A stretch of DNA of 64,000 bases from Alphaproteobacteria bacterium (GTDB lineage: Bacteria; Pseudomonadota; Alphaproteobacteria; GCA-2731375): assembly GCA_965226475.1 (NCBI GenBank), contig CBDDDJ010000005.1, positions 1,741,690 to 1,805,689 of the forward strand, in the 5' to 3' direction. The translations under genes were made by a program, and so were the position numbers. The notes under the pieces were generated by a model, which saw nothing but the letters and a program-made list of their open reading frames with translations, was not told the origin of the DNA and did no database searches. Positions 1,916 through 53,040 of the stretch are shown one piece after another; positions within the stretch are counted from its first letter, which is position 1; the number at the start of each line of letters is the position of its first letter.

Positions 1916-2790
1916 TCAGTAGGGCCGGTCGCCGCGCACCAGGATTCGGTAGAGCATGCGGTGCTGGCTTTGGTCGTAGTCGAAGCCGGCCTTGTGCATG
2001 GCGGAGCGGTTGTCGATCAGCAGCATGTCGCCCAGGCGGTATTCGTGGGTGTAGGCGAACTCCGGGCGGATCGCCGTCTCCAACAGTTCGGTCAGGAACG
2101 CCTGGGTCTCGTCGGGCGCCATGCCGAGGATGTTCTCGGTCTTGTTCTGGTGGAACCAGATCGCCTTGGTGCCGCGTTCGGGGTGGGTGCGCACGAGCGG
2201 CTGGATCAGCGGCGCGCCCTCGGCCGCCGCCGCCCGCTGGTCGGCGACGATGTCGGGGTTGGCGTCCGTGCTCCTGGCGCGGGCACTGCTGATCAGCGTG
2301 TTGGCGGTACGCATGGGATCGATCCGCCGGCGCGTCTCGTCCGGCAGCGCCTCGTAGGCCGCCCGCATGTTGCAGACCGAGGTGCCGCCGCCCGACTCCG
2401 GCAGCGCCACGGGATAGAGGCTGGTGAACTTGGGCGGGTGTTCCTGGTTGGTGTGGTCGGTGTGCCAGGAGGCGTTGTTCGCCATCTTGGCCGGCCGGCC
2501 CTGGCTGTCCTTGTGGCGGTTGGACAGCACGCTCACCAGCGGCACGCCGTCGGCGAGAAAGCGCCGGTTCTGGTCCTCCATCAGCTCGCCGAAATTCTCC
2601 GCCGCGCGCTGGAATTCCGCGGCGGTGAAGTGCTGGTCGCGTATGACCAGGACGACATGGTCCACGAGGGCACCGTAAAGCGCCTGGCGCGTCGCCTCGT
2701 CGAGCGGCAGGCGGAGGTCCACGCCCGTGGCCTCGGCCCCGATGTGCTCCTTGATCTTGGTGATCGTCGGCGACGGCGTCTCGGCGAGCA
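1916..2790 (-). CDS. TauD/TfdA-family alpha-ketoglutarate-dependent dioxygenase
   Basis: The C-terminal 291 aa of ORF 1916..4333 (starting MLAETPSP) carry TauD-like HxD...H motifs (WHTDHT, MHKAG). The rest of the 805-aa ORF is a read-through artefact of high GC. Confidence 0.75.
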
Positions 2791-2897
2791 TTGATGCTCC
2801 CTCTTCATCGCGGGACGGCGGGCGGACGGCGGGCGGACGCCCGCCGAACGGCACGAATAGTGTAACACGTCCGGACATCGACAATGGAGCGCGGCGC

Positions 2898-3087
2898 ATG
2901 GACCCTCTCTTCGATTTTACCGGCAAGGTGGTACCGATCACGAGCGACAGCCGGGGCCTGGGCCTGGCCATGGCGCGGGCTTTCGCGGAGCGCGGCGCCA
3001 ATCTGATCATCGCCAGCCGCAAGCTGGAGAACCGCGAAAAGGTGGCGGCGGAGCTGGAAGGCCTCGGCATCGAGGCTCGAGTGGCGA
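2898..3087 (+). pseudogene. Short-chain dehydrogenase/reductase (SDR), N-terminal fragment only (about 63 aa), truncated by foreign insertion
   Basis: MDPLFDFTGKVVPITSDSRGLGLAMARAFAERGANLIIASRKLE is a classical SDR Rossmann N-terminus (TGxxxGxG). The reading frame degenerates after about 3087, where the AT-rich foreign DNA and IS begin. Confidence 0.65.
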
Positions 3088-3170
3088 GCTGCGGGCCGCA
3101 CGGCCCGGTTTCGAGGGTACAAACGACATTCTCGTGTACGTCCATCATTTTATCTGTATAGACGATAATC

Positions 3171-4778
3171 CGTAACTGCCCAGGTACGTGGCCGCCTTTC
3201 AGGCGGCGTGGAGACGTGCGATCAGGGTTTCGGGATTTTCCATGAGCGCCTGGATGATGTTCCAGCCCTGTTTTCTGGCGGTCGAGATGAAGCCGCGGAC
3301 GGTGGCAAAGTCTTCGGCGCCTTTCTGGCTGCGGAAGCCGCCGGAGATTTTCTGCTTGACCTTCATCATGCGCCCGTCCTGCTCGGCCTGATTGTTGGTG
3401 AACGGCACGGCGAAATTGGTGAGGAAGCGTAGCGCATCTTCCTTGCGAGCCTGAAGGCGCCGGAGAAGGTTGTGGCCGACGCGGCGCGGCTTGCGTCCCC
3501 GGCGCCTGGCCTTGCCCTCGACCGGTTTGGGCGCGAGAGGAGGTTGGGCCTCGTGAAAGGCGATGCCCTCGGCCGTGATGGCGTCCCAACATCGTCGGAA
3601 GCGGCTGACGAGGCTTGGTTTCAGCGCCACTCCCCGCTCCCGGGCGAGATTTACCGCGTGGCAGGCGCGGCGCAATAGTCTCTGCATCTTGCCCGCCCAG
3701 TCCTCCTTCTCGATCTCGACCAGGGCTTGCAACTCGCGCAGGTGATGGGCGTTGCACAGCGCGTGCCGCACCCCCTCCATCGTGAAGTACGGCTTCCAGT
3801 GGTCGTGGACGACGATGCCGCCGACGCCGCCGAGCAGGCTGCCGCGCCGGGGCGAAACCCGGTAGAAGGTCAACAGCGCCGTGGACGCGACGTGCAACCA
3901 TTGACCCCGCCCGGCGACCCGGAACCCGGTCTCGTCCATGTGCTTGACCGGCGCCGATTTCACCAGCTCGCGGATCGTCCCGACGACGCCTTGCACGGAC
4001 TCGGCGCTGTTTCGGCCCATCCGCGCGATGCTCGCCGCAGACAGCCCGGCCCCGAACAGATCCTTCATCAATGCGGCCAGGCGGTCCTCGGGCAGGAGCT
4101 GGTAGTGCGACAGGTAGACCACCATGGCTCCGATCCGACCGCCGTACTGAACCGGGCCGGTGACGCCGTCGGGAAAGGAAGCCCGAGTTTGCGTGCCGCA
4201 ATGCCCGCAACGGCAGCGATGCGCCCGATGCTCCGTGACCACCAGGGGCCGGGGCTCGGGCAGGTCGAAAACCTGACGGGCGCCGTGGCCGGTGGTCATA
4301 TCCGGCGTCAATCCCGAACCACACCGCCGGCACGTCTCGGGATAATGATCGACGCTGGCGTCGGGATCGGCGACTTGGCGCAGGGTCTCGCCCTCGTGGC
4401 CCTTCTGCCCGCCCGGCTTGCGATCCGATTTTCCGCGAAGGCTCCCGGTGCGTCGCTTCTTCTTCCCCGCCGGCGGTTTGTTCAATCCATCGCTGGACGG
4501 CGGCTTGCCGCTGTTCGTGCTGTTCAGGCCAAGCTGGCGCTCGAGTTCGCCAAGCCGGAGTTCGAGCTCGGCGAGCCGCGACCCTTGGGCCAGCACCACA
4601 TCGATCAGGTCGTCTTTCGACAAAAAGGCGAGAGCATACCTATCCATCGAATCCTTAGAATCGACCCACCATCTCTTGTCAAACGAAATCTAGGCCGTCA
4701 GCGCCTCAAACCCACAAAATCTGCCCCGAGAGACCCAATCCGCAGCCCCAGCGAAATCAGATACCTGGGCAGTTACAT
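3171..4778 (-). mobile_element. IS66-family insertion sequence, ISBst12-like single-ORF type (about 1.6 kb)
   Basis: Terminal inverted repeats GTAACTGCCCAGGTAC (3171..3186) and GTACCTGGGCAGTTAC-like (4762..4777) match at 15 of 16 positions and start with GTAA as in IS66-family ends. They enclose a single 482-aa IS66-type transposase. Confidence 0.75.
3199..4647 (-). CDS. IS66-family transposase (TnpC-like, DDE)
   Basis: A 482-aa ORF with an N-terminal leucine zipper, a CxxC...CxxC zinc-finger region (CRRCGSG...CRCGHCG) and a C-terminal DDE core typical of IS66 TnpC. Confidence 0.85.
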   Translation of the reverse strand: MDRYALAFLSKDDLIDVVLAQGSRLAELELRLGELERQLGLNSTNSGKPPSSDGLNKPPAGKKKRRTGSLRGKSDRKPGGQKGHEGETLRQVADPDASVDHYPETCRRCGSGLTPDMTTGHGARQVFDLPEPRPLVVTEHRAHRCRCGHCGTQTRASFPDGVTGPVQYGGRIGAMVVYLSHYQLLPEDRLAALMKDLFGAGLSAASIARMGRNSAESVQGVVGTIRELVKSAPVKHMDETGFRVAGRGQWLHVASTALLTFYRVSPRRGSLLGGVGGIVVHDHWKPYFTMEGVRHALCNAHHLRELQALVEIEKEDWAGKMQRLLRRACHAVNLARERGVALKPSLVSRFRRCWDAITAEGIAFHEAQPPLAPKPVEGKARRRGRKPRRVGHNLLRRLQARKEDALRFLTNFAVPFTNNQAEQDGRMMKVKQKISGGFRSQKGAEDFATVRGFISTARKQGWNIIQALMENPETLIARLHAA

Positions 4779-4794
4779 ATATACATCATACCAT

Positions 4795-6036
4795 TTACAT
4801 TGTATTAATCATTTCAATGCGACAGCATCGATAGGCCCACCGCGCAAACGACCTTCCGGCAACTTCCTCGCCGGCCATCCAGCGCAGCACAACAGGGTCA
4901 AGTTTTGAATTGTGAATTTCTCCTACCAATGATCCGGCGTTGACTATCCGACGTCCGCCGCTGACGCCATCGAAATCATAATTCAAGACTTGAACCCTTG
5001 CATCGTGGGATGTTGCCGAGAGCCCGGATCGGGCGGCGAGCGTCTCGACGGTGGCGTATTGCCGTGGCATCAATTCCGATTGATGCGCCCCAAGCATAAA
5101 CCAGACCTTTTTACAGAAATTCAGCGCAATGTAGGGAGGCATGTTGTTGTGAGGCTGGCTGCCGCCCGCTTCTCCAATGCTCGCCTTGACGAGACCGTGT
5201 TTGAATCCCGCCGGGGCCTGATCAAATTTCACTTTCCGTACGCCAGCATGAAACCAGTATTCATGCTCTGGTCCATGCGTGTGGCTTGGCATCTCTTCTG
5301 CCGTCAGGATGTGCTTTTCCTCGCCACTTATTTCGCCGAAACGGTGGTTAGTAAGTCCGTGTCGTCGATCCGTGTTGACGCCAATGATAAATCGCCCTTG
5401 TGCTTCTTCGTAAGTCACCCAGCCAGTAGGGCATTCTTGACCTGCAAAAGCAATAACCGTATCTCTGGGCAAAACCGCATCATTGAGAACAGCCTCGATT
5501 TTACTAGTTCCCAGTGCTTCCAGTTCTCGGCGAACGTTTGCTTGGAGTTCATCTATGGAGGAGTTAGTATTAGCAAGAATATCCGCAGCCTTACTTGTCA
5601 GGACTGTTTCTGTAGTCTCATTGACTTTTTTACTAATGAGATCTTCTACCTCTTTTTCACCCATTTTATTTTTTATCGCCATCACCACTTGATCATCAAG
5701 TCTATGTTTCAAATTGTCAACAATGCGATACTCGACAACCTTTTGGTCTATCGTTGCTTGCAGAAGTTCCTTCGATTCATCGATGTTTTTTCCAGTGTAA
5801 AAGACAAACGCGCCGCCAATCGTCGTCAGGACGACTGATACGCCGATCGTTAAGTACCTGAACTGGCGTTGAAGGTGTTCGCGGTAGCTCGCCGCCGCGT
5901 TATTATAACTCTCGGAGAGGTGGCTTATTGCATTCGTCAGCGTTTGATCCTGACTCTGCATCACTCGCCTGACTTCGACCTCAACAGCCGTTCTAGTTTC
6001 GTCGTCCATGTCAATCCCCCAAAGAAATGGCGCCAA
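4795..6036 (-). CDS. Membrane-anchored coiled-coil protein with a C-terminal phage tail-collar domain; low-GC foreign gene
   Basis: A 413-aa ORF with one TM helix (YLTIGVSVVLTTIGGAFVFY), a long coiled-coil and a C-terminal tail-collar domain (FAGQECPTGW...EMPSHTH...HNNMPPYIALNFC). GC is about 45 % against about 67 % background. The last ~35 codons read through MITE copy A and on to a stop in the GC-rich DNA between the MITE and the IS66 element, so the true C-terminus is uncertain. Confidence 0.7.
   Translation of the reverse strand: MAPFLWGIDMDDETRTAVEVEVRRVMQSQDQTLTNAISHLSESYNNAAASYREHLQRQFRYLTIGVSVVLTTIGGAFVFYTGKNIDESKELLQATIDQKVVEYRIVDNLKHRLDDQVVMAIKNKMGEKEVEDLISKKVNETTETVLTSKAADILANTNSSIDELQANVRRELEALGTSKIEAVLNDAVLPRDTVIAFAGQECPTGWVTYEEAQGRFIIGVNTDRRHGLTNHRFGEISGEEKHILTAEEMPSHTHGPEHEYWFHAGVRKVKFDQAPAGFKHGLVKASIGEAGGSQPHNNMPPYIALNFCKKVWFMLGAHQSELMPRQYATVETLAARSGLSATSHDARVQVLNYDFDGVSGGRRIVNAGSLVGEIHNSKLDPVVLRWMAGEEVAGRSFARWAYRCCRIEMINTM
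4887..5005. repeat. 120-bp palindromic MITE-like repeat, copy A
   Basis: About 88 % identical to 6119..6238. It has terminal inverted repeats GGGTCAAGTTTTGAATTGTGAATTTC / GAAATCATAATTCAAGACTTGAACCC. Confidence 0.7.
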
Positions 6037-6118
6037 ATATGCCTTGTATGAATTATAGGCTGACTTTCAGGCGTCATCCAAAACTTTTCTCGCATAATCT
6101 CGCCCGCGCGCACACTTT

Positions 6119-6238
6119 GCACAATAGGGTCAAATCTTGAATTGTGAATTTCTCCTACCAATGACCCGGCGTTGTTTATCCGGCATCCGCCACTGGCGCC
6201 ATCAAATTCACAATTCAGGACTTGACCCCTTACATCGC
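6119..6238. repeat. 120-bp palindromic MITE-like repeat, copy B (direct orientation relative to copy A)
   Basis: Same element as 4887..5005, with terminal inverted repeats AGGGTCAAATCTTGAATTGTGAATTT / AAATTCACAATTCAGGACTTGACCCC. It directly abuts the SDR C-terminal remnant. Confidence 0.7.
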
Positions 6239-6430
6239 GCGCCGGAGGAGATCGTCGCCGCCGCGCTCTATCTCGCGGGCGGCGGGGCCAGCTTGACCAG
6301 CGGCACCACCATCCGCGTCGACGGCGGCACCGACCGAGAAACGGGCACCCCCCTCCCTTGCCGGGCAGGAATGGGTTATATCTGGGGCCGGCGCGCGAAG
6401 GGCGCGCCCCGAAACGATGACGGAGGATGA
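6239..6430 (+). pseudogene. SDR C-terminal fragment, probably the 3' remnant of the gene whose 5' part is at 2898..3087
   Basis: The translation EEIVAAALYLAGGGASLTSGTTIRVDGG is the canonical SDR C-terminal motif. The central ~150 codons of the gene are absent. Confidence 0.55.
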
Positions 6431-35393: not shown

Positions 35394-35889
35394 GGTGCTT
35401 GGTCCTCCTACTCGGGCCCCGGGCGAGGCCAGATCGTTCATCGTTGTCGCGCATGGGGTCGCCAATTTCGGGCTCCAGGTCAAGGGCCTTGGCCCGCCCT
35501 TCGGCCACTCGCGGTCGTCGGGCGCGACAAATCGCCAAACGGCAGTCTCCCATGATTGTAACAGACTTGCGGATCTTCCGAATTCCGAGCCCGACGAACC
35601 AGTCGAGGAGGCCGGTCTTCGCGCCGCGGAGTGAGATGGCGGAACGAAGAGGCCCTACGACACCGTCAGAACGGCGTAGATCACCTGCAACTCCGAACCG
35701 AAATCCGGATTGTTCGGCAGATAGGGATTGGGCTCGGTCACGGCGAAATCGGCAAACACGCCGGCATCCACCAGCGACCGCAGGCTTTCACCGAAGGCGC
35801 GTTCGCCGAACAGGTCGTCCCTCTGGGTAACCAGAACGGTCCCGCCCGGGCGAACCAGGCGCGCGAACTCGCGCAAGACCGCCGCGGGG

Positions 35890-37333
35890 ATGTCCCGGGC
35901 TCTGTTGAAAAGCTGAAGTAGGCGTCGTCCGCCTGGAGCGGCTAGGCTCTGGGTGCTGATTCCATCAAGGAGAACGACGCCATGACCAAGACTACACGCA
36001 ACGACCGTTCCTCGGAACCATCCTGTCGGCTCTTGCCATCGATGCCGGAGGCCTTCGACGATCCGCGCATGAGCGTCGATCGCTTCTGCCTTTTGGCGGG
36101 CCTCGAGTCTTTGAACGAGATGATGTCGGCGGACGCGGAAGCCTTGTGCGGTTCGCGCCACGCCCGCTCGGGCGAGCGCAAGGGCCATCGATGGGGCACG
36201 ACCCGGAGCGAGATCGCCTACCACGGCGGCAAAGTGAAGGTCGAGCGCCCTCGGGTGGGGGACTTCGCGGGTCGGGAGATGAGCCTGCCGAGTTGGGAGC
36301 TGCTGTCGGAACCCGAACTCTTGCAAGCCTGGGCGATGAATCTGATGGTGATCAACGTCTCGACCCGCAAGTATGCCCGCGCGGTGCGCCTGCCGGACGA
36401 TGCGGGCGGCGATCTGCCGGCGGCATCGGGTGACGCAACCTCGAAGTCGGCGGTCTCGCGCCGTTTCGTGGCGTTGACGCGAAGCAAGCTGAAGGCCTGG
36501 CTGGCGAGCCCGCTCGACGATCTCGATCTCGTGGTGCTCCAGATCGACGGGCTCCATGTCGGCGATCACCTGATGGTGGCGGCGATCGGCATCGACACCG
36601 GCGGCGCGAAGCACGTGCTGGGCCTGGCCGAGGGCGCGACGGAGAACGCGGCCACGGTGCAAGCCATGCTCGACAACCTGATCGAGCGCGGTCTCGATCC
36701 CGAACGGCCTCGGCTCTACATCGTCGACGGCGCCAAGGCGCTCTCGAAGGCGATCCGGCGGACCTTCGGGCGGGCGGCGGCCCTCCAGCGCTGCCAGGTG
36801 CACAAGGGGCGCAACATCACGGACCGGCTGGACGAGAGCCTCCATGCCGGCGTCAGGAAGGTCTTGCGGCAGGCCTGGCAGCAGGACGACGCGGCCAAGG
36901 CCGAACGGCTCTTGCGCAACCTCGCCCGCCGTCTGGAGCATGACGCACCCGGCGTCTCGGGCTCGATCCTGGAGGGCCTGGACGAGATCCTGACCGTGAT
37001 CCGGCTCGGCCTCCCGCCGCAACTTCGACGCTCGCTGGCTTGCACCAACGCCATCGAGAACGCGATCGGCACCGTCCGGACGGTGCAGCGGAACGTCAAG
37101 CGCTGGCGCAACGCCGAGATGGCGCTGCGTTGGACCGCCGCCGGCCTCTTGGAGGCGCAAAAGACCTTCCGCCGCCTCAAGGCCCACCGCCAGCTCCCCA
37201 TCCTCGACGCCGCCCTGCGGGAGGCGGTGAGAAAGGCCGGAGCAAAGTCCGTCATTGAAGACATCGAGGTGGCCGCGTAGCCTCTCGATCAGACGATGCC
37301 TATCTCGCACTTTTCAACATTGGGCGGGACATC
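35890..37333 (+). mobile_element. IS256-family insertion sequence (about 1.44 kb)
   Basis: The ends are inverted repeats beginning GATGTCCCGGGCTCTGTTGAAAAG (left) and GATGTCCCGCCCAATGTTGAAAAG (reverse complement of right). It encodes a 432-aa IS256/mutator-type transposase. Confidence 0.75.
35982..37280 (+). CDS. IS256-family (MULE/mutator-like) transposase
   Basis: A 432-aa protein with the IS256 DDE motif region (VLQIDGLHV..., IVDGAKAL, CQVHKGRNI). Confidence 0.85.
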   Translation: MTKTTRNDRSSEPSCRLLPSMPEAFDDPRMSVDRFCLLAGLESLNEMMSADAEALCGSRHARSGERKGHRWGTTRSEIAYHGGKVKVERPRVGDFAGREMSLPSWELLSEPELLQAWAMNLMVINVSTRKYARAVRLPDDAGGDLPAASGDATSKSAVSRRFVALTRSKLKAWLASPLDDLDLVVLQIDGLHVGDHLMVAAIGIDTGGAKHVLGLAEGATENAATVQAMLDNLIERGLDPERPRLYIVDGAKALSKAIRRTFGRAAALQRCQVHKGRNITDRLDESLHAGVRKVLRQAWQQDDAAKAERLLRNLARRLEHDAPGVSGSILEGLDEILTVIRLGLPPQLRRSLACTNAIENAIGTVRTVQRNVKRWRNAEMALRWTAAGLLEAQKTFRRLKAHRQLPILDAALREAVRKAGAKSVIEDIEVAA

Positions 37334-37788
37334 GCCGACCGCCTCGCTCTCGGGGACATGGGTCAATAACCCCCACACAGATCAGGGCATCGTAGCCGCC
37401 GTCGGCGATGTCCAGCGGCAACCTCTGCAAGTCGACCCGTCGCAGGGTGCGATAGACGTCCCGCCCTCGGCCCTGCTCCAACGAGGCGGATGACAGATCG
37501 ATGCCGTCGATGGCCCCGGTGAAACCCACATGTCGCAGCGCGCGCCCGGCCAAGCCCGTGCCGCAACCCGCATCGAGAATGGTTGCCGTCGGAGATATGG
37601 ATTTCCACAACAGTTCGGCGGCCCGCGCCGGGGCGCGATAGTCCCAATCGGCCAGGTCGTCGTCGTAGGTGGGCGCCCAGTCGTTGTAACTCTTCTCGAC
37701 GTCCGCGCTCAACGTGCTGCCCTGTTTCAACCAGCCATGATCGACGGTGTCACTCATGCCATTCCCTCGGTGGTCGCCCGAGGGCGAC

Positions 37789-43062: not shown

Positions 43063-43338
43063 TCATCCGCGAGACCGTGGGCCTTCGCTCTTCGGATCGA
43101 TGACTCCCGCGCGCTCGCGAGCGATCTTCAAGAGGTCCTCCTTCGAAAGATCGGTAATGCCGCTTTCCAGGCCCTCCGTGACGAGACGCTGCATGTTTGC
43201 GATCTTCGCCGCCCGGTCCTGCTCGCGGCGGATCAGGTCGCGGATATAGTCGCTGGTATTGCCGTAGCGTCCGGACCGCGCCTGCGCCTCGACCCAGGCT
43301 TTCATCGGTTCCGGCAAGGACACGTTCATCGTCGCCAT
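43063..43338 (-). CDS. parD: ParD-family type II antitoxin (ribbon-helix-helix), apparently orphan
   Basis: The N-terminus MATMNVSLPEPMKAWVEAQARSGRYGNTSDYIRDLIRR matches the ParD/RHH consensus. No parE-like ORF lies downstream. Confidence 0.6.
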   Translation of the reverse strand: MATMNVSLPEPMKAWVEAQARSGRYGNTSDYIRDLIRREQDRAAKIANMQRLVTEGLESGITDLSKEDLLKIARERAGVIDPKSEGPRSRG

Positions 43339-43416
43339 CGCTACCTCCAAACAGTGCGTTGATCGTGCCAAATATTGGCAAACTTCGACACATTCAACAT
43401 CGGATCAATCAGCCGC

Positions 43417-44454
43417 CTATCCCGCCACCTCATGCGCCTCGACGAACGCACCCAGGAAGGTCGCGAGGTTGGTGCCGAGTTCGGGGCAGAGGTAGCCGCC
43501 TTCCTGGATCAGCACGGTGGGGAGACCGACGGCGGCGGTGCGTCGGGCGATTTCGGCGAAGCCTTCGGTGGTGATTTTCAGGATGCCGAGGGGGTCGTTT
43601 TCCTGGGCGTCGAGGCCGAGGGACAGAAGCAGAGCCGATGGCGCGAAGTCGCGGATTTCGGCGAGACCCCGGTCGAGCACGTCGAGAAAGCCGCCATCGC
43701 CCGTGCCGGCGGCGAGCGGTAGGTTGAGGTTGGCGCCCCGGCCCGCGCCGGCACCCCGCTCGTCGGCATAGCCGGCGAAATAGGGGTAGAAGGCACTGGG
43801 ATCGCCATGCAGGGAACAGAAGAAAACGTCGCCGCGATCATAGAATATCCCCTGGGTGCCGTTGCCGTGGTGGACGTCGACGTCGAGGATGGCGACCTTG
43901 CCGCGCGCCGCCGCCACCCGCTCGGCGGCGATGGCGACGTTGTTGAGGTAGCAGAAGCCGCCCGCGGCGTCGGCGAAGGCGTGATGGCCCGGCGGGCGGC
44001 AGAGGGCGTAGGCGCGCGGCGCGCCTTCCAGCACCAGGTTCGCCGCCGTCAGCGCCGCCTCGGCGCTCGCGCGGGCGGAGGTCCAGGTCTCGGCCATAAT
44101 GGGAGCGGCCAGGTCGTTCACGTGATAGCCGACGCGGCCGACGATGCCTTCGGGCCGGGCCGCCATCCGCCCGCTCGGGTGCGCGTTCGGCACCATGATC
44201 TCGCCCGCGTCGGGGAGCGCGCGCCAGAGGTTGAAGCCGTTCTCGAGGAAATCCAGATATCGGGCGTCATGCACCGCCTCGAGCGAGGCCGTATCATATG
44301 ACCGGCTCGCCTCCGGGCCATGGCCAGACTCGGCCAGCGCCGCGAGGAAGCGGCGCACCCGCTCCGGCGTTTCCGGGTGCGGCGCCGGCCGGCCCCGGAG
44401 CATGAACTCGGACGGCGCGTGCTTCAGTTGCGTCTCGTTGAAGATCACCTGCAT
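43417..44454 (-). CDS. Histone-deacetylase-like (HDAC/AcuC/acetylpolyamine amidohydrolase family) protein
   Basis: It has the RPPGHHA and DVDVHHGNGT motifs characteristic of Zn-dependent HDAC-class hydrolases. Confidence 0.75.
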   Translation of the reverse strand: MQVIFNETQLKHAPSEFMLRGRPAPHPETPERVRRFLAALAESGHGPEASRSYDTASLEAVHDARYLDFLENGFNLWRALPDAGEIMVPNAHPSGRMAARPEGIVGRVGYHVNDLAAPIMAETWTSARASAEAALTAANLVLEGAPRAYALCRPPGHHAFADAAGGFCYLNNVAIAAERVAAARGKVAILDVDVHHGNGTQGIFYDRGDVFFCSLHGDPSAFYPYFAGYADERGAGAGRGANLNLPLAAGTGDGGFLDVLDRGLAEIRDFAPSALLLSLGLDAQENDPLGILKITTEGFAEIARRTAAVGLPTVLIQEGGYLCPELGTNLATFLGAFVEAHEVAG

Positions 44455-44493
44455 GGTAGGGGTGTATAGCGGCTGGCGGGCAAGGATGAAATC

Positions 44494-45336
44494 ATGACGG
44501 ACGGCACCCAGGGGCGGATCGCCGCCCTCTACACCCATCCGATCAAGGGCTGCCGCGCGGTGGCGCTGCAACGCGCGCGCCTGCGCCCCACGGGCCTACG
44601 GCACGACCGGGAGTGGATGGTGGTCGACGCGAACGGTGATTTGATCACCCAGCGCGAGGCACCGCGCCTCGCCACCGTTCGAGTCGAGGTCGGCGAAGGC
44701 GGCCTGACGCTCTCCGCCGACGGGCTCGATCCGGTTGCCGTGCCATATGGGCCGGGCGATGCGATCCCGGTCCGGGTCTGGCGCAGCCGGGTTCGTGCGC
44801 AAACCACGACGCCGGAGGCCGACGCCTTCTTCAGCCGCGTCACCGGCGCGCCGTCACGGCTGGCCCGCTTCGACCCGACGGAGCGGCGCGAGTGCGATTC
44901 CGACATCGCGCCCGGCGATCACACCTATTTCGCCGACGGCTATCCGGTGCTGGTCACCAACGCGGCCTCGCTCGACCGATTGAACGGCGTCATCGCCGAG
45001 GCGGGCCACGCGCCGGTGCCGATGGCGCGTTTCCGCCCCAACATCGTCGTCGACGGCATCGCGGCCGACCTCGAGGACCGGGCCGGCCGGCTTCGGATCG
45101 GCGACGAGGTCGGCCTCGACCTGGTGAAGCCCTGCGATCGCTGCGAGGTGACGACCATCGACCAGGAGACCGGCGAGCGCCGGCCCAGTGAGCCGCTGGC
45201 GAGCCTCGCCAAGATCCGCATGGCGCCCGGCGGCGGCAAGGTTCTGTTCGGCCAGAACGGAGTCCCGCGCCTTGTGGGCGACGCGGCGGAGATCGCCGTC
45301 GGCGATGCCGTGGCGTTCCTCGACCTCCGGAATTGA
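44494..45336 (+). CDS. MOSC-domain protein (YcbX-like)
   Basis: It has an N-terminal MOSC_N beta-barrel and a MOSC domain with the conserved Cys (VKPCDRC). Confidence 0.7.
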   Translation: MTDGTQGRIAALYTHPIKGCRAVALQRARLRPTGLRHDREWMVVDANGDLITQREAPRLATVRVEVGEGGLTLSADGLDPVAVPYGPGDAIPVRVWRSRVRAQTTTPEADAFFSRVTGAPSRLARFDPTERRECDSDIAPGDHTYFADGYPVLVTNAASLDRLNGVIAEAGHAPVPMARFRPNIVVDGIAADLEDRAGRLRIGDEVGLDLVKPCDRCEVTTIDQETGERRPSEPLASLAKIRMAPGGGKVLFGQNGVPRLVGDAAEIAVGDAVAFLDLRN

Positions 45337-45735
45337 AAGCGCCACCCCCGGCGCGCCGGCGCCCGTCGTCCCGCCTCCGTTCAATCGGGACGGGAATGGT
45401 CTATCGCCATCGTTGCCGATGTTCCAATTCCCCACCGACAAGCCCTTGAAACACCCGGCCTGGGCCGCCCGCCGCTTCCGCGTCACGAGCAAGACGCCGG
45501 ACATTCGAGGCCGGGCCGACGGCGACTCTTCCAGGCGGGCATCTGTTCCGGCGCCTTCCCCGCCGGCGCCGCGCGGTGGAAGAAGGTCGCGGAACCGAGC
45601 GACGCCAGGTCCGATGCCGTCATCGACGTCGCGACGAGGGGGATGAAGCGGCCGGTACCGTCCGACCAAAGTCCCGAGCTGGCGAGCGCTGAAAGCTGGG
45701 CATCCATCCTGCAAGTCGTGGTGTAGACCCTCTCA

Positions 45736-46625
45736 TTGATCCCGAAGCGTCCCGGCGAGCGGATCAAGACGGATCGGCGGGATGCGCTGAGCCTGGCGAG
45801 TTTGCCGCGAGCGGGTCAACTCACGGCGGTCTGGGTGCCGGATGCGACGCACGAGGCGGTTCGCGCGCTGGTTCGTCTGCGCAGGCTGGCGGCGGTAGAC
45901 GTGAAGCGAGCCAAGCAGCAGATCCTGAGCTTCCGTCTGATGCAAGAGCGGGTTTGGCGGGCGGAGAGCCATTGGACGAAGGCCCACCGGGGTTGGCTGC
46001 TGGATCAGAGGTTCGATCATGACGCCCTGGTCCTCACCTTCACGGAACTCCTCGCCCGGCTCGAACGGGCGGAGACGATGCTGGCACGCGTCCGCTCGGA
46101 CCTGAGGGCGAGCATTCCGGCCTGGGCCTTGTATCCGCTCGTGGAAGCGCTTCAGGCGCTACGTGGCTTCGATTGGGTGAGGAGGGACCGTCGCGCCAGT
46201 GGCGCGGCGTAAGCCCGACGCAAGGCCTCCATGGTGGTGGCGGAGATCGGCGACTTCCGGCGCTTCCCGACGCCGAGCCATCTGATGGCCTACGTCGGCT
46301 TGGTGCGGTCGGAATATTCCAGCGGCAATCGGCGCCGACAGGGCGAGATCACCAAGGCGGGCAATGGTCTGGTCCGCCGGGTCTTGATCGAGGCGGCGTG
46401 GACCTATCGTTACCCGGCGCGTCAGTCTTATCCGATCCGCAGGCGCTCGAACATCTGCCGGGGCCGATCCGTGAGAAGGCCTGGCAGGCACAAATCCGGC
46501 TCTGCCGCCGCATGCGCGATCCGCGCAAACGCGGCAAGCACCACAACACCGTGCTGACGGCAGTGGCCCGCGAACTCGCGGGGCACGTCTGGGCGATCGC
46601 TCGCATGGTCGAGCCGGTTCCGGTG
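45736..46625 (+). pseudogene. IS110-family transposase remnant (N-terminus missing, frameshifted)
   Basis: ORFs 45736..46212, 46231..46557 and 46173..46628 together spell the middle and C-terminal IS110 transposase regions (VVAEIGDFRRFPTPSHLMAYVGLVRSEYSSG...RQGEITKAGN...VLTAVARELAGHVWAI). Confidence 0.65.
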
Positions 46626-47046
46626 TAGACACGCAATCGCCGCCCATCGGCGGCGAACCTGACACGCCCGCTCGGCCGGGCAGCGGTGGCGGCGGCCACT
46701 TGGGGAACCCGCGTTCCTTGGCCATGGGCAGGATCGATCCGACGCCCGTTTTTAGAGTGAGGACAGCCCCATCGAACAGAGGGACATGCGGTAACCAACC
46801 CGCGCATAAGAGCTTGATGGACCGTCGATCAAAGCCGTCCCGCCGCTGCCTACATAAGCGGGCGCTACAGAGCATCCGGAAAGAAGCCGGATGACAGGAC
46901 GAGTTCGCGCTTGACACCTTGGGGGGACGATAAGAGCCAAGACACGACATTCCGGTTGGCTAATGCATTGGCAGCTATTGCGACCGTTCAGCACTCCCTC
47001 TAGTCTCGGTTTCGAGAGTGGTTCCGAGCTGCGTTCCTCAGCCTGA

Positions 47047-47976
47047 GTGTCTGGCCCGAAAAGAGTTGAGTGATTTCAGTCAGTTGTGATTCACTGTTTG
47101 TATTTAGCAACCAGGGAGACACAACATGTGGACCAAATTCACTCGCCCGAAGTATGAACGCGACCTGCTGCGCTACGCAAGCGACCTGACGGATGGAGAA
47201 TGGAAGGTGCTGGAGCCGTTGCTGCCTCGCGCCAAAGCGCTGGGACGGCCTCGGACGACGGCATTGCGCGAGGTGGTGAACGCGATCCTCTACCTACTGC
47301 GTAGCGGCTGTCCATGGCGCATGCTGCCCCGGGACTTCCCGCCACGCTCGACGGTGCAGCGCTACTTTTATCTCTGGCGGGACGACGGCACCTGGTCCGA
47401 GGTCAACCGGCAACTGCTGGTCGCGGCGCGCGAGGCCGAGGGCCGCGCGGCCGGCCCGTCGGCCGGTATCATCGACAGTCAGAGCGTAAAAACCACGGAA
47501 AGCGGCGGTATCCGGGGCTTCGACGCCGGAAAGAAAGTCAAGGGCCGCAAGCGTCACATCCTCACCGACACCGGCGGCCTGCTGGTCGCGGTCGTGGTCC
47601 ACGGCGCCGAGATCCAGGACCGCGACGGCGCGCCGGCGGTGTTCGCCGCCATCCCCCGCCACTTTCCCCGCCTGCGCCACGTCTTCGCCGACGGCGCCTA
47701 TGCCGGGCCCAAGCTCGAGGGCGCACTGAAGCGGATCGGCCGCTGGTCGCTGGAGATCGTCAACCGTCCCGCGGGCGTGAAGGGCTTCCAACTCCTGCCC
47801 CGCCGATGGGTCGTCGAGCGCACGCTCGCCTGGCTCAATCGAAACCGGCGGCTGGCCAAGGACTTCGAGACGGCCATCGAGACCGCCGAGGCCTGGATCT
47901 TCCTCGCCAGCATCCAACTCCTCACGCGCCGTCTCGCAAGAGCCTGAAAACACTCGATTCATTTCGAGTCGGACTC
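47047..47976 (+). mobile_element. IS5-family (IS1031-group-like, about 930 bp) insertion sequence, copy 1 of a head-to-tail tandem
   Basis: It has terminal inverted repeats of about 26 bp (GTGTCTGGCCCGAAAAGAGTTGAGTG / CACTCGATTCATTTCGAGTCGGACTC) and a single 273-aa DDE transposase. It is flanked by TGA and TAA trinucleotides. Confidence 0.7.
47126..47947 (+). CDS. IS5-family DDE transposase (copy 1)
   Basis: A 273-aa protein with DDE_Tnp_1 motifs (IDSQSVKT, HILTDTGGL, FADGAYAG). Confidence 0.85.
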   Translation: MWTKFTRPKYERDLLRYASDLTDGEWKVLEPLLPRAKALGRPRTTALREVVNAILYLLRSGCPWRMLPRDFPPRSTVQRYFYLWRDDGTWSEVNRQLLVAAREAEGRAAGPSAGIIDSQSVKTTESGGIRGFDAGKKVKGRKRHILTDTGGLLVAVVVHGAEIQDRDGAPAVFAAIPRHFPRLRHVFADGAYAGPKLEGALKRIGRWSLEIVNRPAGVKGFQLLPRRWVVERTLAWLNRNRRLAKDFETAIETAEAWIFLASIQLLTRRLARA

Positions 47977-47979
47977 TAA

Positions 47980-48909
47980 GTGTCTGGCCCGAAAAGAGTT
48001 GAGTGATTTCAGTCAGTTGTGATTCACTGTTTGTATTTAGCAACCAGGGAGACACAACATGTGGACCAAAATCACTCGCCCGAAGTATGAACGCGACCTG
48101 CTGCGCTACGCAAGCGACCTGACGGATGGAGAATGGAAGGTGCTGGAGCCGTTGCTGCCTCGCGCCAAAGCGCTGGGACGGCCTCGGACGACGGCATTGC
48201 GCGAGGTGGTGAACGCGATCCTCTACCTACTGCGTAGCGGCTGTCCATGGCGCATGCTGCCCCGGGACTTCCCGCCACGCTCGACGGTGCAGCGCTACTT
48301 TTATCTCTGGCGGGACGACGGCACCTGGTCCGAGGTCAACCGGCAACTGCTGGTCGCGGCGCGCGAGGCCGAGGGCCGCGCGGCCGGCCCGTCGGCCGGT
48401 ATCATCGACAGTCAGAGCGTAAAAACCACGGAAAGCGGCGGTATCCGGGGCTTCGACGCCGGAAAGAAAGTCAAGGGCCGCAAGCGTCACATCCTCACCG
48501 ACACCGGCGGCCTGCTGGTCGCGGTCGTGGTCCACGGCGCCGAGATCCAGGACCGCGACGGCGCGCCGGCGGTGTTCGCCGCCATCCCCCGCCACTTTCC
48601 CCGCCTGCGCCACGTCTTCGCCGACGGCGCCTATGCCGGGCCCAAGCTCGAGGGCGCACTGAAGCGGATCGGCCGCTGGTCGCTGGAGATCGTCAACCGT
48701 CCCGCGGGCGTGAAGGGCTTCCAACTCCTGCCCCGCCGATGGGTCGTCGAGCGCACGCTCGCCTGGCTCAATCGAAACCGGCGGCTGGCCAAGGACTTCG
48801 AGACGGCCATCGAGACCGCCGAGGCCTGGATCTTCCTCGCCAGCATCCAACTCCTCACGCGCCGTCTCGCAAGAGCCTGAAAACACTCGATTCATTTCGA
48901 GTCGGACTC
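47980..48909 (+). mobile_element. IS5-family (IS1031-group-like) insertion sequence, copy 2 (differs from copy 1 by about one nucleotide in the CDS)
   Basis: It is identical in organisation, with a period of 933 bp (930-bp IS plus a 3-bp TAA junction). The downstream flank is TTA. Confidence 0.7.
48059..48880 (+). CDS. IS5-family DDE transposase (copy 2)
   Basis: A 273-aa protein differing from copy 1 at one residue (F5I). Confidence 0.85.
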   Translation: MWTKITRPKYERDLLRYASDLTDGEWKVLEPLLPRAKALGRPRTTALREVVNAILYLLRSGCPWRMLPRDFPPRSTVQRYFYLWRDDGTWSEVNRQLLVAAREAEGRAAGPSAGIIDSQSVKTTESGGIRGFDAGKKVKGRKRHILTDTGGLLVAVVVHGAEIQDRDGAPAVFAAIPRHFPRLRHVFADGAYAGPKLEGALKRIGRWSLEIVNRPAGVKGFQLLPRRWVVERTLAWLNRNRRLAKDFETAIETAEAWIFLASIQLLTRRLARA

Positions 48910-49061
48910 TTAGACTGAAGCGTGAGAGCCGATACCGCGCCAGGATTGCGCCCCTTCGCGTTAGGGCGTAGCAATGTCGATCGGAGATTTATCCACGTTG
49001 GTGCCCTCGCCGAGTACGATCATGGCATTTGCGTGGTCGGACAACGAGGGAGGGAGAAGCG

Positions 49062-50024
49062 ATGCGGCGCACGCTGGTTATCGGCGCGGTCGGGCAGATC
49101 GGCACCGATCTGACGCCCGTACTGCGGGAGAAGCTTGGCGCCGACACTGTCGTCGCCGCCGGACGGAAGACGCCGCCTTCGCCGGAACTCGAAGCGGCCG
49201 GGCCCTTCACCTTCCTCGACGCCACCGACCGCGACGCCCTGCGCGCCGTAGTCGAGGAATACGATATTGGCACGATCTGTCATCTGGCGGCGTTGATGTC
49301 AGGCGATGGGGAGCAAAACCCGAACCTCGCCTGGCGGGTCAACATGGAGAGCCTGAAGCACATCCTCGATCTGGCGGTGGAGTTCGCGTTTGAGCAGGTC
49401 TTCTGGCCCTCCTCCATCGCCGTCTTCGGGCCGACGACGCCCCGCGAAATGACGCCGCAGCGCACCGTGCTGGAGCCGACGACGATCTACGGCGTCAGCA
49501 AGCTCGCGGGCGAGCACCTCTGTCACTATTACCACCTGAAATACGGCCTCGACGTGCGTAGCCTGCGCTATCCGGGCTTGATCACCTACAAGACCTATTC
49601 GGGTGGCGGCACCACCGATTACGCGGTGGAGATCTTCATCGAGGCGATCCGGGCCGCCCGCTACACCTGTTTCGTCACGCCCGAAACACGCCTGCCGATG
49701 ATGTACATGGACGACGCGGTCCGCGCCACCGTCGAGTTGATGGACGCGGACGCAACGCGGATCTCGGTCCGCACCAGCTACAACATCACGGCCTTGAGTT
49801 TCACCGCCGCCGAGCTGGCGGCCGAAGTCGCGGCACGGGTCGAAGGCTTCGCTTGCGATTTCGCGCCCGACTTCCGCCAGGCCATCGCCGATTCCTGGCC
49901 CGACAGCATCGACGATTCCGCCGCCCGCGACGACTGGGGCTGGCGCCCGGACGTCGATTTGGCCACCCTCGCCGATACCATGCTGGACGGCTTGCGCGCC
50001 CGCGCGGCAAACCTGGGAGAGTGA
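49062..50024 (+). CDS. tdh: NAD-dependent L-threonine 3-dehydrogenase of the SDR/UDP-glucose-4-epimerase-like type
   Basis: It has LVIGAVGQIG (GxxGxxG), YGVSKLAGE (YxxxK) and the RYPGLITYKTYSGGGTTDYAVE block characteristic of the epimerase-fold threonine dehydrogenases. Confidence 0.6.
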   Translation: MRRTLVIGAVGQIGTDLTPVLREKLGADTVVAAGRKTPPSPELEAAGPFTFLDATDRDALRAVVEEYDIGTICHLAALMSGDGEQNPNLAWRVNMESLKHILDLAVEFAFEQVFWPSSIAVFGPTTPREMTPQRTVLEPTTIYGVSKLAGEHLCHYYHLKYGLDVRSLRYPGLITYKTYSGGGTTDYAVEIFIEAIRAARYTCFVTPETRLPMMYMDDAVRATVELMDADATRISVRTSYNITALSFTAAELAAEVAARVEGFACDFAPDFRQAIADSWPDSIDDSAARDDWGWRPDVDLATLADTMLDGLRARAANLGE

Positions 50025-50028
50025 CGCC

Positions 50029-50317
50029 ATGCGATTTCCGACGATTCTTCTCGCCGTCGCCTCCCTCATGCTGGCGGCCAGTTTCGCGCCCCCGGCTTCG
50101 GCCGCCGACCGACAGACCGCGCCCAGCGCGGAGCGCATCGAAATGCTGCTGCGCGATTGGCTGGCCGACGAGAAGGGCGCCGGGGCGATGCTGAGCGCCT
50201 ACGCGGACGCGGAGCTACTGGACTTCCGGCTTGTCGGACTGGAGCCCTTGGCGTCCGGCCGCTGGTTCGCCGATACGGAATTGTCGTTCGATTTCGGCCC
50301 GCCGCCGAGCGGTGTCA
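50029..50317 (+). pseudogene. Small secreted protein gene, 3' end truncated by the IS21 insertion
   Basis: It has a signal peptide MRFPTILLAVASLMLAASFAPPASA and then about 70 aa. The frame runs into the IS21 terminal repeat at about 50318, and everything downstream in ORF 50029..51345 is antisense to istB. Confidence 0.4.
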
Positions 50318-50502
50318 ATGGCGGAGCAAAAAGGGACCACCGTGGCGGTGTAAGAAGGGACCACTTGGCGGCTGCGGGCTTGTCCCCTAGTCCATGGGAG
50401 GGCCCCGGGTGCGACGCGGCGTGCCCTCAACAGGCCGACGCGGCGGCGCGCGCGGGAGGGACCTGTGGGCCCACGGGGTCAAGCGTGGGTTGGGTGGTCG
50501 GT

Positions 50503-51267
50503 TCAGTTCGCCGTCGGGGTTTGACGCCTGCGGCTCTGGTTGAGCCTGTAGCTCTCGCCATTCATCTCGAGGATGTTGACGTGGTGGGTGAGGCGGTCGA
50601 GGAGAGCGCCGGTGAGGCGCTCGGAGCCGAACACCTCGGTCCATTCGTCGAAGGGCAGATTGGTGGTGACCAGGGTCGAGCCCCGCTCGTAGCGTTGGCT
50701 GAACACCTCGAACAACAGCTCGGCGCCGGTCTTCGACAGCGGCACGAAGCCGAGTTCGTCGACGATCAGAAGCTTGTAGGTGGCGAGCTTCTTCTGGAAC
50801 CTCAGCAGCTGCTTGTCATCGCGGGCCTCGATGAGCTCGTGGACCAGTGCGGCGGCGGTGATGAAGCCGACCGAGAGGCCCTTCTGGCAGGCCGCCAAGC
50901 CGAGACCGAGGGCGATGTGGGTCTTGCCGGTGCCGCTGTTGCCGAGCGCGATGAGGTTCTCGCGGCGCTCGATGTACTCGCAGCGGGCCAGCTCCAGGAC
51001 CAGCGCCTTGTTGAGCGAGGGGATGACCTTGAAGTCGAAGCTGTCGAGGCTCTTGACCACGGGGAAGCGCGCCGCCTTGATGCGCCGCTCGACCATGCGG
51101 CGCTCGCGGTCGATCAGCTCGAGCTCGGCGAGTCTCAACAGGTAGCGGACGTGATCGACGCCTTCCGAGGCGCACTGCCGGGCGATCTTGTCGTACTCGC
51201 GCAGGAAGGTCGGCAGCTTCAGCGTCTTGAGGTGGTGGGCGAGCAGCACTTGCGGTGTGTCGGTCAT
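50503..51267 (-). CDS. istB: IS21 helper ATPase IstB
   Basis: It has a Walker A GNSGTGKTH, a Walker B LLIVDELG and DnaC-like AAA+ features. Confidence 0.85.
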   Translation of the reverse strand: MTDTPQVLLAHHLKTLKLPTFLREYDKIARQCASEGVDHVRYLLRLAELELIDRERRMVERRIKAARFPVVKSLDSFDFKVIPSLNKALVLELARCEYIERRENLIALGNSGTGKTHIALGLGLAACQKGLSVGFITAAALVHELIEARDDKQLLRFQKKLATYKLLIVDELGFVPLSKTGAELLFEVFSQRYERGSTLVTTNLPFDEWTEVFGSERLTGALLDRLTHHVNILEMNGESYRLNQSRRRQTPTAN

Positions 51268-52763
51268 GCGCCGAGCCCCGACAGCAGGCTCATGTACGAC
51301 TTGGCGGACGTCATCGCGACCCGGGCGCGCGGCAGATACGGATAGACGTCGAGGTTGAGCCTGGGCGGCCGCCGCTCGATGCGGCACAGTACCAGGTGCT
51401 TCACCGCATCAAAGCCGATTGCGCCGAGCCGCAGGGCGTCGCCGACCGCACCCTCGACCTCCTCGAGCCGGAAGGTCTCCAGTAGACGGAGCACCTGGAC
51501 GTACTCGCGCTTGCCTGCCTTGCCCATACGAGCTTCGAGGAGCCGCCGCAGAGTGATGAAGGCCTCGGGCAGGTCCCAGCCCGCCAATGGCGCGGCCTGG
51601 TCGAGGGCGCCGATCTTCTGCTCGATCAAGGGCAGGTAATGCAGCGGGTCGAAGATCAGGTCCTCGCTGTCGTAGGACCGGCGGTGCCGGGCGATCACCT
51701 CGGCCCCGCAGCTGATCACCACCTCATCGACGTAGCCCCGGATGAGCACCTCACGGTGGCCGTAGGCCACGGGCACGGAATAGTCGTTGCTGCGGTAACG
51801 CACCAGCGACAGCGAACTCGCCCGTCCAGGGCGCTTATCGCAGGCATCATAGGGAGCAGGCGGCAATGGCAAGAGAACTTGACGATCCCGCTCGAGACGC
51901 TCGCCGATGGTCTCCTTGTGGCCCCGCAGCCGCGCCGCCTGGCGCCGGCGGCACTGTTCGGCGAGAGCATCGTTGAGGGCCGCGAAGCTCTCGGCACGCG
52001 GGACGGGGACCAGGAAGTTCCGCCGGATGAAGCCGACCAGTCCCTCGACCTTGCCCTTGTCGTTGCCCTTGCCCGGCCGGCCGAACCTGTCCTCGAACAG
52101 ATAGTGGGACTGAAGCTCCGTGAAGACGCGCGTTCGCTGCCGCTTCCCATCGCCCAGGATCCGGGCAACCGCCAGCTTGGTGTTGTCGTACAGGATGGAT
52201 CGGGGGACGCCGCCGAAGAAGGCAAACGCCGCGTTGTGGCCATCGCAGAATGCTTCGGTCGTCTCCGCCGGATAGGCCGCAACAAAGCAACCATCACTGT
52301 GGGGAAGGTCGAAGGCAAGGAAGTGGATCTTCCGTAACGCGCCGCCGATCACCGCCATCGCTTCGCCGAAGTCCGCCTGGGCGTGACCGGGGGAATGGGA
52401 GAGTGGCACGAACACCTCACGCGACCGAAGCCCCTGCTCACGAACGTAGTCCTTCACGATGGTGTAGCCGCCCGTGAAACCGTACTCGTCCCGGAGGCGG
52501 TCGAAGATGCGCTTCGCAGTGTGCCGTTGCTTGTGGTGGCTGGTCCGATCGTCTTCCAGAATCCGATCGATGATCCCCGTGAACGGACCCAGCTTCGGCC
52601 GCCGTGGCGGCTTGCCGCGGCGATACCCCGGCGGCACCGAGAACGACAGCATCTTGCGTACCGTCTTGCGGTCCAGCCCGAACACCCGCGAGGCCTCGCG
52701 GGTGCTCATTCCCTCGACACGACACGCCCGCCGAACCCGTGCGTACAACTCCACCCGATACAT
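51264..52763 (-). CDS. istA: IS21 transposase IstA
   Basis: It has an N-terminal HTH and an integrase-type DDE core (500 aa from MYRVELYARV). Confidence 0.85.
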   Translation of the reverse strand: MYRVELYARVRRACRVEGMSTREASRVFGLDRKTVRKMLSFSVPPGYRRGKPPRRPKLGPFTGIIDRILEDDRTSHHKQRHTAKRIFDRLRDEYGFTGGYTIVKDYVREQGLRSREVFVPLSHSPGHAQADFGEAMAVIGGALRKIHFLAFDLPHSDGCFVAAYPAETTEAFCDGHNAAFAFFGGVPRSILYDNTKLAVARILGDGKRQRTRVFTELQSHYLFEDRFGRPGKGNDKGKVEGLVGFIRRNFLVPVPRAESFAALNDALAEQCRRRQAARLRGHKETIGERLERDRQVLLPLPPAPYDACDKRPGRASSLSLVRYRSNDYSVPVAYGHREVLIRGYVDEVVISCGAEVIARHRRSYDSEDLIFDPLHYLPLIEQKIGALDQAAPLAGWDLPEAFITLRRLLEARMGKAGKREYVQVLRLLETFRLEEVEGAVGDALRLGAIGFDAVKHLVLCRIERRPPRLNLDVYPYLPRARVAMTSAKSYMSLLSGLGA

Positions 52764-53040
52764 CCCCCCCGCCTTCCAGTCAGAGCAACCCTGACAGAAG
52801 GCTATACGCGGTCCCATTTTGGTCCGCCGCAGCCGGATCGACCGGCCGCTTCAGTGGGGGATTATTGCGCCGCCGTTCTCAGAGCGGCGTCATCGGATAC
52901 CAGCGCCGCCGCCAGGGGCGCTATCAATTGATGCTCGACAGGCGAGAACGCGGGCTCGGGCTGATCCGCTTCACCCCTCGCGGCAGCGTGCTGTATTTGC
53001 CCCGGGATAGTTGATCCGAATTCCGGGCCAAGGGCCCGGC

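Follow-up and report, generated by a model that had tools for sequence, protein, structure and literature searches.

A TAA-separated tandem pair of an IS1031-group insertion sequence in an alphaproteobacterial genome and its likely origin in target choice

Members of the IS1031 group, which belongs to the IS5 family of insertion sequences (ISs), measure ~850–1050 bp, and tandem (IS)2 dimers and circle junctions are known from the IS3, IS21, IS30, and IS256 families (e.g., IS911, IS2, and IS30). Among eukaryotic elements, piggyBac provides a comparison for a 3-bp target with flank-derived overhangs, and the PIF/Harbinger superfamily has been related to IS5 in published work. The IS1031 group has been described as making an exclusive 3-bp direct repeat, and some of its members use a frameshift (PMC12016507). 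In the model proposed for mPing, a MITE of the PIF/Harbinger superfamily, staggered cuts leave 3-nt 5′ overhangs that derive from the flanking triplet, the target site duplication (PMC4561436). The window analyzed here is a 64-kb stretch of DNA (64,000 nt) from an uncultured Alphaproteobacteria bacterium (assembly GCA_965226475.1, contig CBDDDJ010000005.1), which holds two copies of an IS1031-group element arranged head to tail and separated by a single TAA triplet. Target choice, and not an end-joining reaction, is the likely origin of this pair. Loci used for comparison are referred to by numbers with the prefix L.

Both copies are 930 bp long, lie in the same orientation, and repeat with a period of 933, which leaves a 3-nt spacer between them; the letters read ...cagcc TGA, GTGTCTGG...GGACTC for copy 1, TAA, GTGTCTGG...GGACTC for copy 2, and TTA gactg (Table 1). 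An earlier sequence-only reading of the window had placed a TGA-IS-TAA-IS-TTA arrangement at 47044–48912, and this is exact to the base. Its description of two 930-bp direct copies with one amino acid difference in a 273-aa transposase also holds, as does the TNA-type 3-bp spacer of a genuine head-to-tail dimer (TAA): the sole mismatch between the copies is T at 47138 versus A at 48071, which gives F5I in the 273-aa open reading frames (ORFs). The abutted ends and their short spacer read GGACTC TAA GTGTCT at 47971–47985. Each 26-nt IS end occurs exactly twice in the 64-kb window, with zero occurrences expected from shuffled sequences, and the identity between the two units reaches 2 nt further to the left (CT at 47043–44 and 47975–76) because the base preceding each triplet is C. 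The exact transposase protein of copy 2 (Ile5) is present on 34 contigs of public assemblies, and no other record of the exact copy-1 protein (Phe5) was found.

The assignment of the element to an IS1031-like group of the IS5 family, also made from the letters alone, is confirmed by profile matches. The transposase matches Pfam DDE_Tnp_1 (E 3e-29) and DUF4096 (E 2e-29), the latter in the N-terminal part of the 273-aa DDE transposase, and NCBIfam transpos_IS5_3 at 249 bits (cutoff 110). Each 930-bp copy, whose length lies within the size range of the group, contains one uninterrupted 273-aa ORF, and the IS tips GTGTCTGG... and GAGTCCGA... show GAG/GTG-type starts that are shared by the relatives. 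The element resembles IS1031 of Komagataeibacter xylinus, ISAli1, ISEc61, and ISRm4-1 in its length, its single DDE transposase, its imperfect repeats starting with G(T/A)G, and its TNA target with a 3-bp triplet. At the amino acid level, the transposase is 68.8% identical to that of ISAli1, 67.3% to that of ISEc61, and ~62% to that of ISRm4-1, and it shares 58% with a copy in K. xylinus NBRC 15237 and 57% with Acetobacter copies that have a near-identical left end (the K. xylinus and Acetobacter copies lie on contigs without a name annotation for the IS). The closest match among one-genome-per-species data is only 78% identical, and the element is therefore a new, unnamed member of the IS1031 group. 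No copy of the IS was found in the viral contigs searched.

The dimer is real. The sequence-only reading had left room for an assembly artifact, and this concern is answered by an independent 9-Mb contig of the European Nucleotide Archive (ENA; ERZ28763718 ctg125884, locus L102), which carries the same dimer and is 99.93% identical to the window over 7.2 kb (window 43063–50317). The two dimer copies in L102 differ from each other at a position other than the single nucleotide polymorphism (SNP) of the window, so each assembly has its own copy-specific SNP, which is not what an expansion artifact would give. The same right junction is also present in two short-read contigs of other samples, which run from inside the right inverted repeat (IRR) into TTAGACTGAAG and match the window at 100% identity. 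Between the window and L102, there are five differences in 7.2 kb, of which three fall in the dimer or in the right-flank triplet and two in noncoding DNA 3′ of an IS110 remnant.

In sister strains, exactly this site is occupied by one copy only, with the flanks cTGA-IS-TTAg in L108 and L119 and cTGA-IS-TCAg in L125 and L126. Two flank SNPs (46446 and 49362) split the dimer strains (window and L102) from the single-copy strains, and the locus is therefore polymorphic via one gain or one loss of a copy. The left triplet is TGA in every strain that carries the locus, and the center base of the right triplet is T in the window, L103, L104, L108, and L119, A in L102, and C in L125 and L126, in sequences that are 99.7–99.9% identical. 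From this alignment, three alleles at one base point to repeated rewriting and not to ordinary mutation. The base at 47042, two before the left triplet, is also variable, being C in the window, L102, L108, and L119 and T in L125 and L126, and in the latter two strains the IS is bordered by 8 nt on each side that are perfect inverted repeats of each other (CAGTCTGA ... TCAGACTG). From the left flank of L119, a single-copy strain, ~85 nt (the equivalent of 46922–47006) are missing that are present in all other strains.

The flanks of the element and of its relatives define the target. The left flank of the window IS reads T-N-A in 25 of 26 cases, and so does every one of the 76 half-sites of relatives. 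Directly outside the triplet (position −4), 77–84% of the half-sites have C, followed further out by mostly T or C; judged from these flanks, the target is 5′-C TNA G-3′. The 64 kb contain 42 CTNAG sites, three of which are the three borders of the dimer. Because the element starts with G and ends with ...CTC, each insertion rebuilds C-TNA-G at both borders between the IS and its flanks, the right one of which also matches the extended preference, and a new copy therefore inserts precisely next to an old one. Of 26 distinct loci of the window IS, about 4 are abutted, compared with the roughly 1–5% expected from random choice among CTNAG (or YCTNAGR) sites, this expectation being a rough estimate; target regeneration accounts for most of the excess, and a further local preference is possible. 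The right flank TTAGAC occurs at four unrelated loci (window, L002, L096, and L117), and in all four the left triplet is not the TTA of the right flank. A unit that carries TTAGAC at its right end was considered for this, and with such a unit only the window gains matching TGA repeats, while L002 and L096 do not. A target preference of the form ..TC TNA GA.. is more likely than such a unit and explains part of the shared TTAGAC, but not the repeated T or the C that follows GA.

Abutted pairs recur in the IS1031 group. The survey of single versus tandem copies that had been proposed with the sequence-only reading found both arrangements: outside the window, head-to-tail pairs of this IS occur at two loci, with TAA, TAA, and TTA as left flank, spacer, and right flank in L002 and TAA, TTA, and TTA in L117. 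Among relatives, a 51%-identical element is paired in L078, where TTA occurs three times, and the finished pSymA replicons of the cultured Sinorhizobium meliloti strains ml56 and AK21 carry two ISRm4-1 copies separated by TTA. Different ISs can also be joined in this way; for example, ISRm4-1 and ISRm4-3 are separated by TAA on pSymA of S. meliloti ml59. In L001 (5922–8782), a three-element array consists of the window IS (+), a different 969-bp IS (−), and a 956-bp variant of the window IS (−), with four identical TAA triplets separating and flanking the elements, and this array is consistent with three insertions into one original C-TAA-G site. The pair in L029 is tail to tail, L121 is likewise among the loci with heterologous or tail-to-tail abutment, and L052 shows abutment to an internally deleted copy, so that abutment is seen in all orientations and between different ISs. 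Neither dimerization nor circle recombination can make the different-IS and inverted pairs, which need the transposase to insert one element at the tip of another that is already in place. Abutment with a TNA spacer is thus ordinary for the IS1031 group. In two pSymA loci of S. meliloti (L120 and L122, 801–3484), a third IS1031-group element lies ~20 nt beyond the ISRm4-1 pair, again after TTA, which places three elements of the group in a row beside an IS66 element.

The triplets that flank the window IS are often non-identical, unlike the exclusive 3-bp direct repeat published for the group (PMC12016507). Among the single-copy loci of the window IS, the two triplets are identical at five (L003, L091, L113, L115, and L116), with TCA, TTA, TAA, and the non-TNA triplets ATA and TAT, and they differ in the center base at another five, which are L112 (TTA on the left, TGA on the right), L114 (TAA, TGA), L118 (TGA, TCA), L096 (TAA, TTA), and the window locus (TGA, TTA). 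For the relatives, the counts are 30 identical and 8 discordant pairs of triplets. The non-TNA triplets ATA and TAT belong to L113 and L116 (IS at 2422–3351 in each) and are perfectly repeated, unlike those of about half of the copies at TNA sites.

Discordant flanking triplets are usually put down to recombination between copies. In L118, however, deletion of the IS and one triplet restores a PAS domain that aligns end to end over the junction, and the same deletion in L112 restores a complete GST_N domain. Judged by these restored domains, L118 and L112 are clean simple insertions with different center bases; one of the two center bases is then not target-derived, and recombination between copies is excluded for these two loci. 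The critical residue is D in a 48%-identical homologue of the L118 PAS kinase, and this favors G, in the left triplet, as the original center base of the target; of an uninterrupted orthologue of this kinase, only the downstream part is on record (98% identity). The argument from discordance rests on L112, L118, and the window locus, which is represented in multiple assemblies, as L096 and several of the relatives may be chimeric short-read contigs. Two copies in finished replicons were set aside as clean discordant cases: the DUF4145 domain next to ISAli1 stops at the junction, and ISEc61 lies at an island border with no empty IncC site. The discordant center bases (TGA with TCA, TAA with TTA) are complementary in about half of the cases, as base frequencies predict, and give no signal. 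Pollution by the majority base during polishing cannot yield the rare C and G seen in L118 and L125/L126.

Taken as a whole, these observations are best explained by insertion of the second copy by transposase exactly beside a resident copy, with one triplet derived from the donor, an account to which we give slightly better than even chances. The succession of steps, the chemistry of the overhang, and the derivation of the TAA from a donor are inferred, as follows. A resident single copy, cTGA-IS-TTAg, would have gained a second copy in one sub-lineage by insertion at a C-TNA-G rebuilt by the resident tips, which would leave one TNA between the elements. The incoming element would be released with a 3-nt 5′ overhang equal to its flanking TNA, either through a cut in the non-transferred strand 3 nt beyond the tip or through cuts at both 3′ ends of a circle junction. 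The T and A of this overhang would pair at the staggered TNA target, allowing the overhang to be ligated, and the mismatch at the center would be resolved by replication or repair, so that one flank would keep the center base of the donor and the other that of the target. A TAA-flanked donor that entered either rebuilt site of cTGA-IS-TTAg would give TGA, TAA, and TTA, and L002, L117, and L078 would fit as well; at non-TNA targets, where the overhang cannot pair, perfect repeats would be expected. Homologous recombination between the copies could collapse the pair to one, and repeated rounds of abutting insertion and collapse by recombination would alter the center base of the flank, which is T, A, or C at this locus.

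A more general proposal, which we put forward tentatively and at rather less than even chances, is that IS1031-group elements move like PIF/Harbinger elements or piggyBac. Excision would then be precise, a TNA overhang from the donor would be ligated at the target, the "direct repeat" would be a chimera of donor and target, tandem pairs would be a natural by-product, and their junction would be chemically the same as a circle junction. The IS1031 group resembles PIF/Harbinger and mPing in its 3-bp T(A/T)A or TNA target, and the overhang geometry of mPing would let a donor triplet pair with a cut TNA. Unlike this proposal, no carry-over of the donor center base has been reported for mPing, and the link to the IS1031 group is drawn from flank sequences only.

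The sequence-only reading had taken the junction for a highly reactive (IS)2 or circle-junction intermediate, seldom noted for the IS5 family, with a strong fused promoter made of a −35 box in the right end and a −10 box in the left end. On such an account, a transposase of the IS3, IS21, or IS30 type would have joined one end 3 nt outside the other end of a sister copy, and the active junction would drive transposition or rearrangement. The pair does resemble the (IS)2 junctions of the IS3, IS21, IS30, and IS256 families in that IRR abuts the left inverted repeat (IRL) across a spacer as long as the target repeat; every same-IS pair found is head to tail, in L002, L117, and L078 the spacer is the same triplet as one of the two flanks, and IS1248, of the neighboring IS427 group, forms cointegrates, a sign of replicative capacity (PMC3281130). 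The promoter is not supported, however, as a consensus scan of 46900–49100 for sigma-70-like promoters returned no sites and the best hexamer pair straddling the junction (TCGATT-15-TCTAAG) matches at 7/12 positions, which is the median of random 55-nt stretches of the window. Joining within one element or between sister copies should, in addition, give a spacer equal to a flank, and TAA matches neither flank (TGA, TTA) of the single-copy allele at the locus. The dimer has also survived the divergence, by SNPs and by relocation of an IS21 element, of the two strains that carry it, and it is therefore, as far as this comparison goes, not visibly hyper-reactive. Finally, IS1031-group abutments between different ISs and in tail-to-tail orientation, which have no place among (IS)2 junctions, need another mechanism, and the reactive-junction account thus appears improbable. 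As for its rarity in the family, no description of tandem pairs was found in the literature on IS1031/IS5 dimers, circles, and ISRm4, which agrees with the sequence-only reading, but the structure is common in public genomes.

A circle with an IRR-TAA-IRL junction, formed from a TAA-flanked copy and integrated into the resident copy by homologous recombination, or gene conversion from another dimer, would yield exactly TGA, TAA, and TTA from the TGA-IS-TTA allele and would fit L002 and L117 equally well. The TAA junction is common to the window and L002, and the reverse reaction, collapse, would explain the single/dimer polymorphism. Neither route can make the heterologous or tail-to-tail abutments of L001, L029, and L121, for which an insertion route must exist anyway, and both leave the discordant triplets of clean single insertions unexplained; a circle of the IS1031 group was, moreover, not found in the literature. 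We regard this origin as unlikely, although less so than the (IS)2 reaction. An assembly artifact, in which a single IS was expanded or reads from a circle or from another locus were folded into the chromosome, would be in keeping with the standing of IS repeats as classic mis-assembly sites and with the clustering of the window–L102 differences in repeated elements (three of the five in the dimer or right triplet, the other two in the noncoding DNA 3′ of the IS110 remnant). Against it stand the recovery of the same dimer with different copy-specific SNPs in the independent assembly and the occurrence of dimers of the same IS at two further loci in other assemblies, as well as in finished genomes of cultured S. 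meliloti, and the artifact is very improbable.

Several points weigh against adjacent insertion with a donor-derived triplet. Re-insertion with faithful duplication predicts a TGA or TTA junction and not TAA, so the explanation depends on the proposed donor-derived triplet, and L102 (TGA, TAA, TAA) needs an extra step or an assembly error. The clean discordant cases number two, both in long-read metagenome assemblies and one at ~4.7x coverage, and consensus errors or read mis-assignment at the IS borders could conceivably underlie them. In a published case of de novo insertion by a member of the IS1031 group, the TGA repeats were identical (PMC12016507), and when mPing moved from a TCA-flanked donor, 45 of the 46 new insertions went into TTA or TAA sites, with no carry-over reported (PMC4561436). 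All same-IS pairs are head to tail, which also fits the rival mechanisms; inverted identical pairs are long palindromes that may not survive or assemble. No empty site was found for the window locus, and the left and right flanks are thus not shown to have once been contiguous. When the joined flanks were searched against plasmids for an empty site, only a noncoding segment of 110–140 nt matched, the nearest orthologues of the epimerase to the right (82–84% identical) have different upstream genes and no alignable upstream DNA, and the strains found via the IS110 fragment all carry the IS except L127, in which the site is replaced by an IS256-family element and a rearrangement.

Table 1. Features of the tandem pair and of its flanks in the window
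Feature	Coordinates	Strand	Remark
IS110-family transposase, split in two ORFs (158 and 108 aa)	45736..46557	+	left context
Left flank, C and triplet TGA (half of the C-TNA-G target)	47043..47046	+	identical in all strains with the locus
IS copy 1, 930 bp, IS1031 group of the IS5 family	47047..47976	+	
Left inverted repeat, copy 1 (GTGTCTGGCCCGAAAAGAGTTGAGTGATTTCAG)	47047..47079	+	25/33 match to right end, ungapped
Transposase ORF, copy 1, 273 aa, Phe at residue 5	47126..47947	+	
Right inverted repeat, copy 1, ending ...GAGTCGGACTC	47944..47976	+	
Junction triplet TAA; with the IS tips C-TAA-G, itself a target site	47977..47979	+	
IS copy 2, 930 bp; 100% identical to a copy in locus L001	47980..48909	+	
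Left inverted repeat, copy 2	47980..48012	+	
Transposase ORF, copy 2, 273 aa, Ile at residue 5	48059..48880	+	
Right inverted repeat, copy 2	48877..48909	+	
Right flank, triplet TTA and G; center base 48911 is T, A, or C by strain	48910..48913	+	
NAD-dependent epimerase/dehydratase gene	49062..50024	+	right context, start 152 nt past dimer

The surroundings of the pair contain further mobile elements. The IS110-family transposase to the left lacks the first ~85 profile positions, has the same broken form in all strains found, and is separated from the dimer by ~490 nt of noncoding DNA. Within this interval, a noncoding segment of ~110–140 nt 3′ of the broken transposase (46701–46841) is 75–79% conserved in many alphaproteobacterial plasmids; it adjoins an IS110 transposase in Rhizobium sullae (L105) and stands alone between unrelated genes in Novosphingobium (L106). 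An Rfam search of 45300–49100 gave no match, including for this segment, which may be a guide-RNA region of the IS110/IS1111 type or a target sequence. To the right, the nearest relatives do not share the gene order upstream of the epimerase, and an IS21-family element is present at 50300–52882 (−), with istA at 51264–52817 and istB at 50503–51387. In L102, the IS21 element lies ~2.4 kb further on, after the equivalent of 55330 and in the opposite orientation, and in L108 it is absent from the position that it has in the window. In L127, 30 nt separate the IS256-family element (Transposase_mut, ~4782–6250) from the IS5 insertion point downstream of it, and the sequence on its far side, with a radical SAM gene, is unrelated; an IS256-like copy that is 84% identical to this element is present in the window at ~35883–37336.

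The tandem pair is therefore a real, recurrent, and mechanistically ordinary-looking result of target specificity and not a proven reactive intermediate. Abutment of ISs does not by itself imply an intermediate of the IS3, IS21, or IS30 type, as it can follow from a target that is rebuilt at the element's own ends, and this calls for caution in the annotation of IS arrays and before such junctions are read as evidence of activity. What was not expected is the suggestion that, in this group, the flanking TNA triplets often fail to be faithful duplications, clean insertions included. Confirmation of this would offer a first mechanistic clue to the cutting and joining of DNA by IS1031-group elements and a functional tie of the group to the eukaryotic PIF/Harbinger elements, and non-identical flanks in the group would not automatically be evidence of IS-mediated rearrangement. 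If the overhang reading is true, the center base of a flank would record the previous address of the element.

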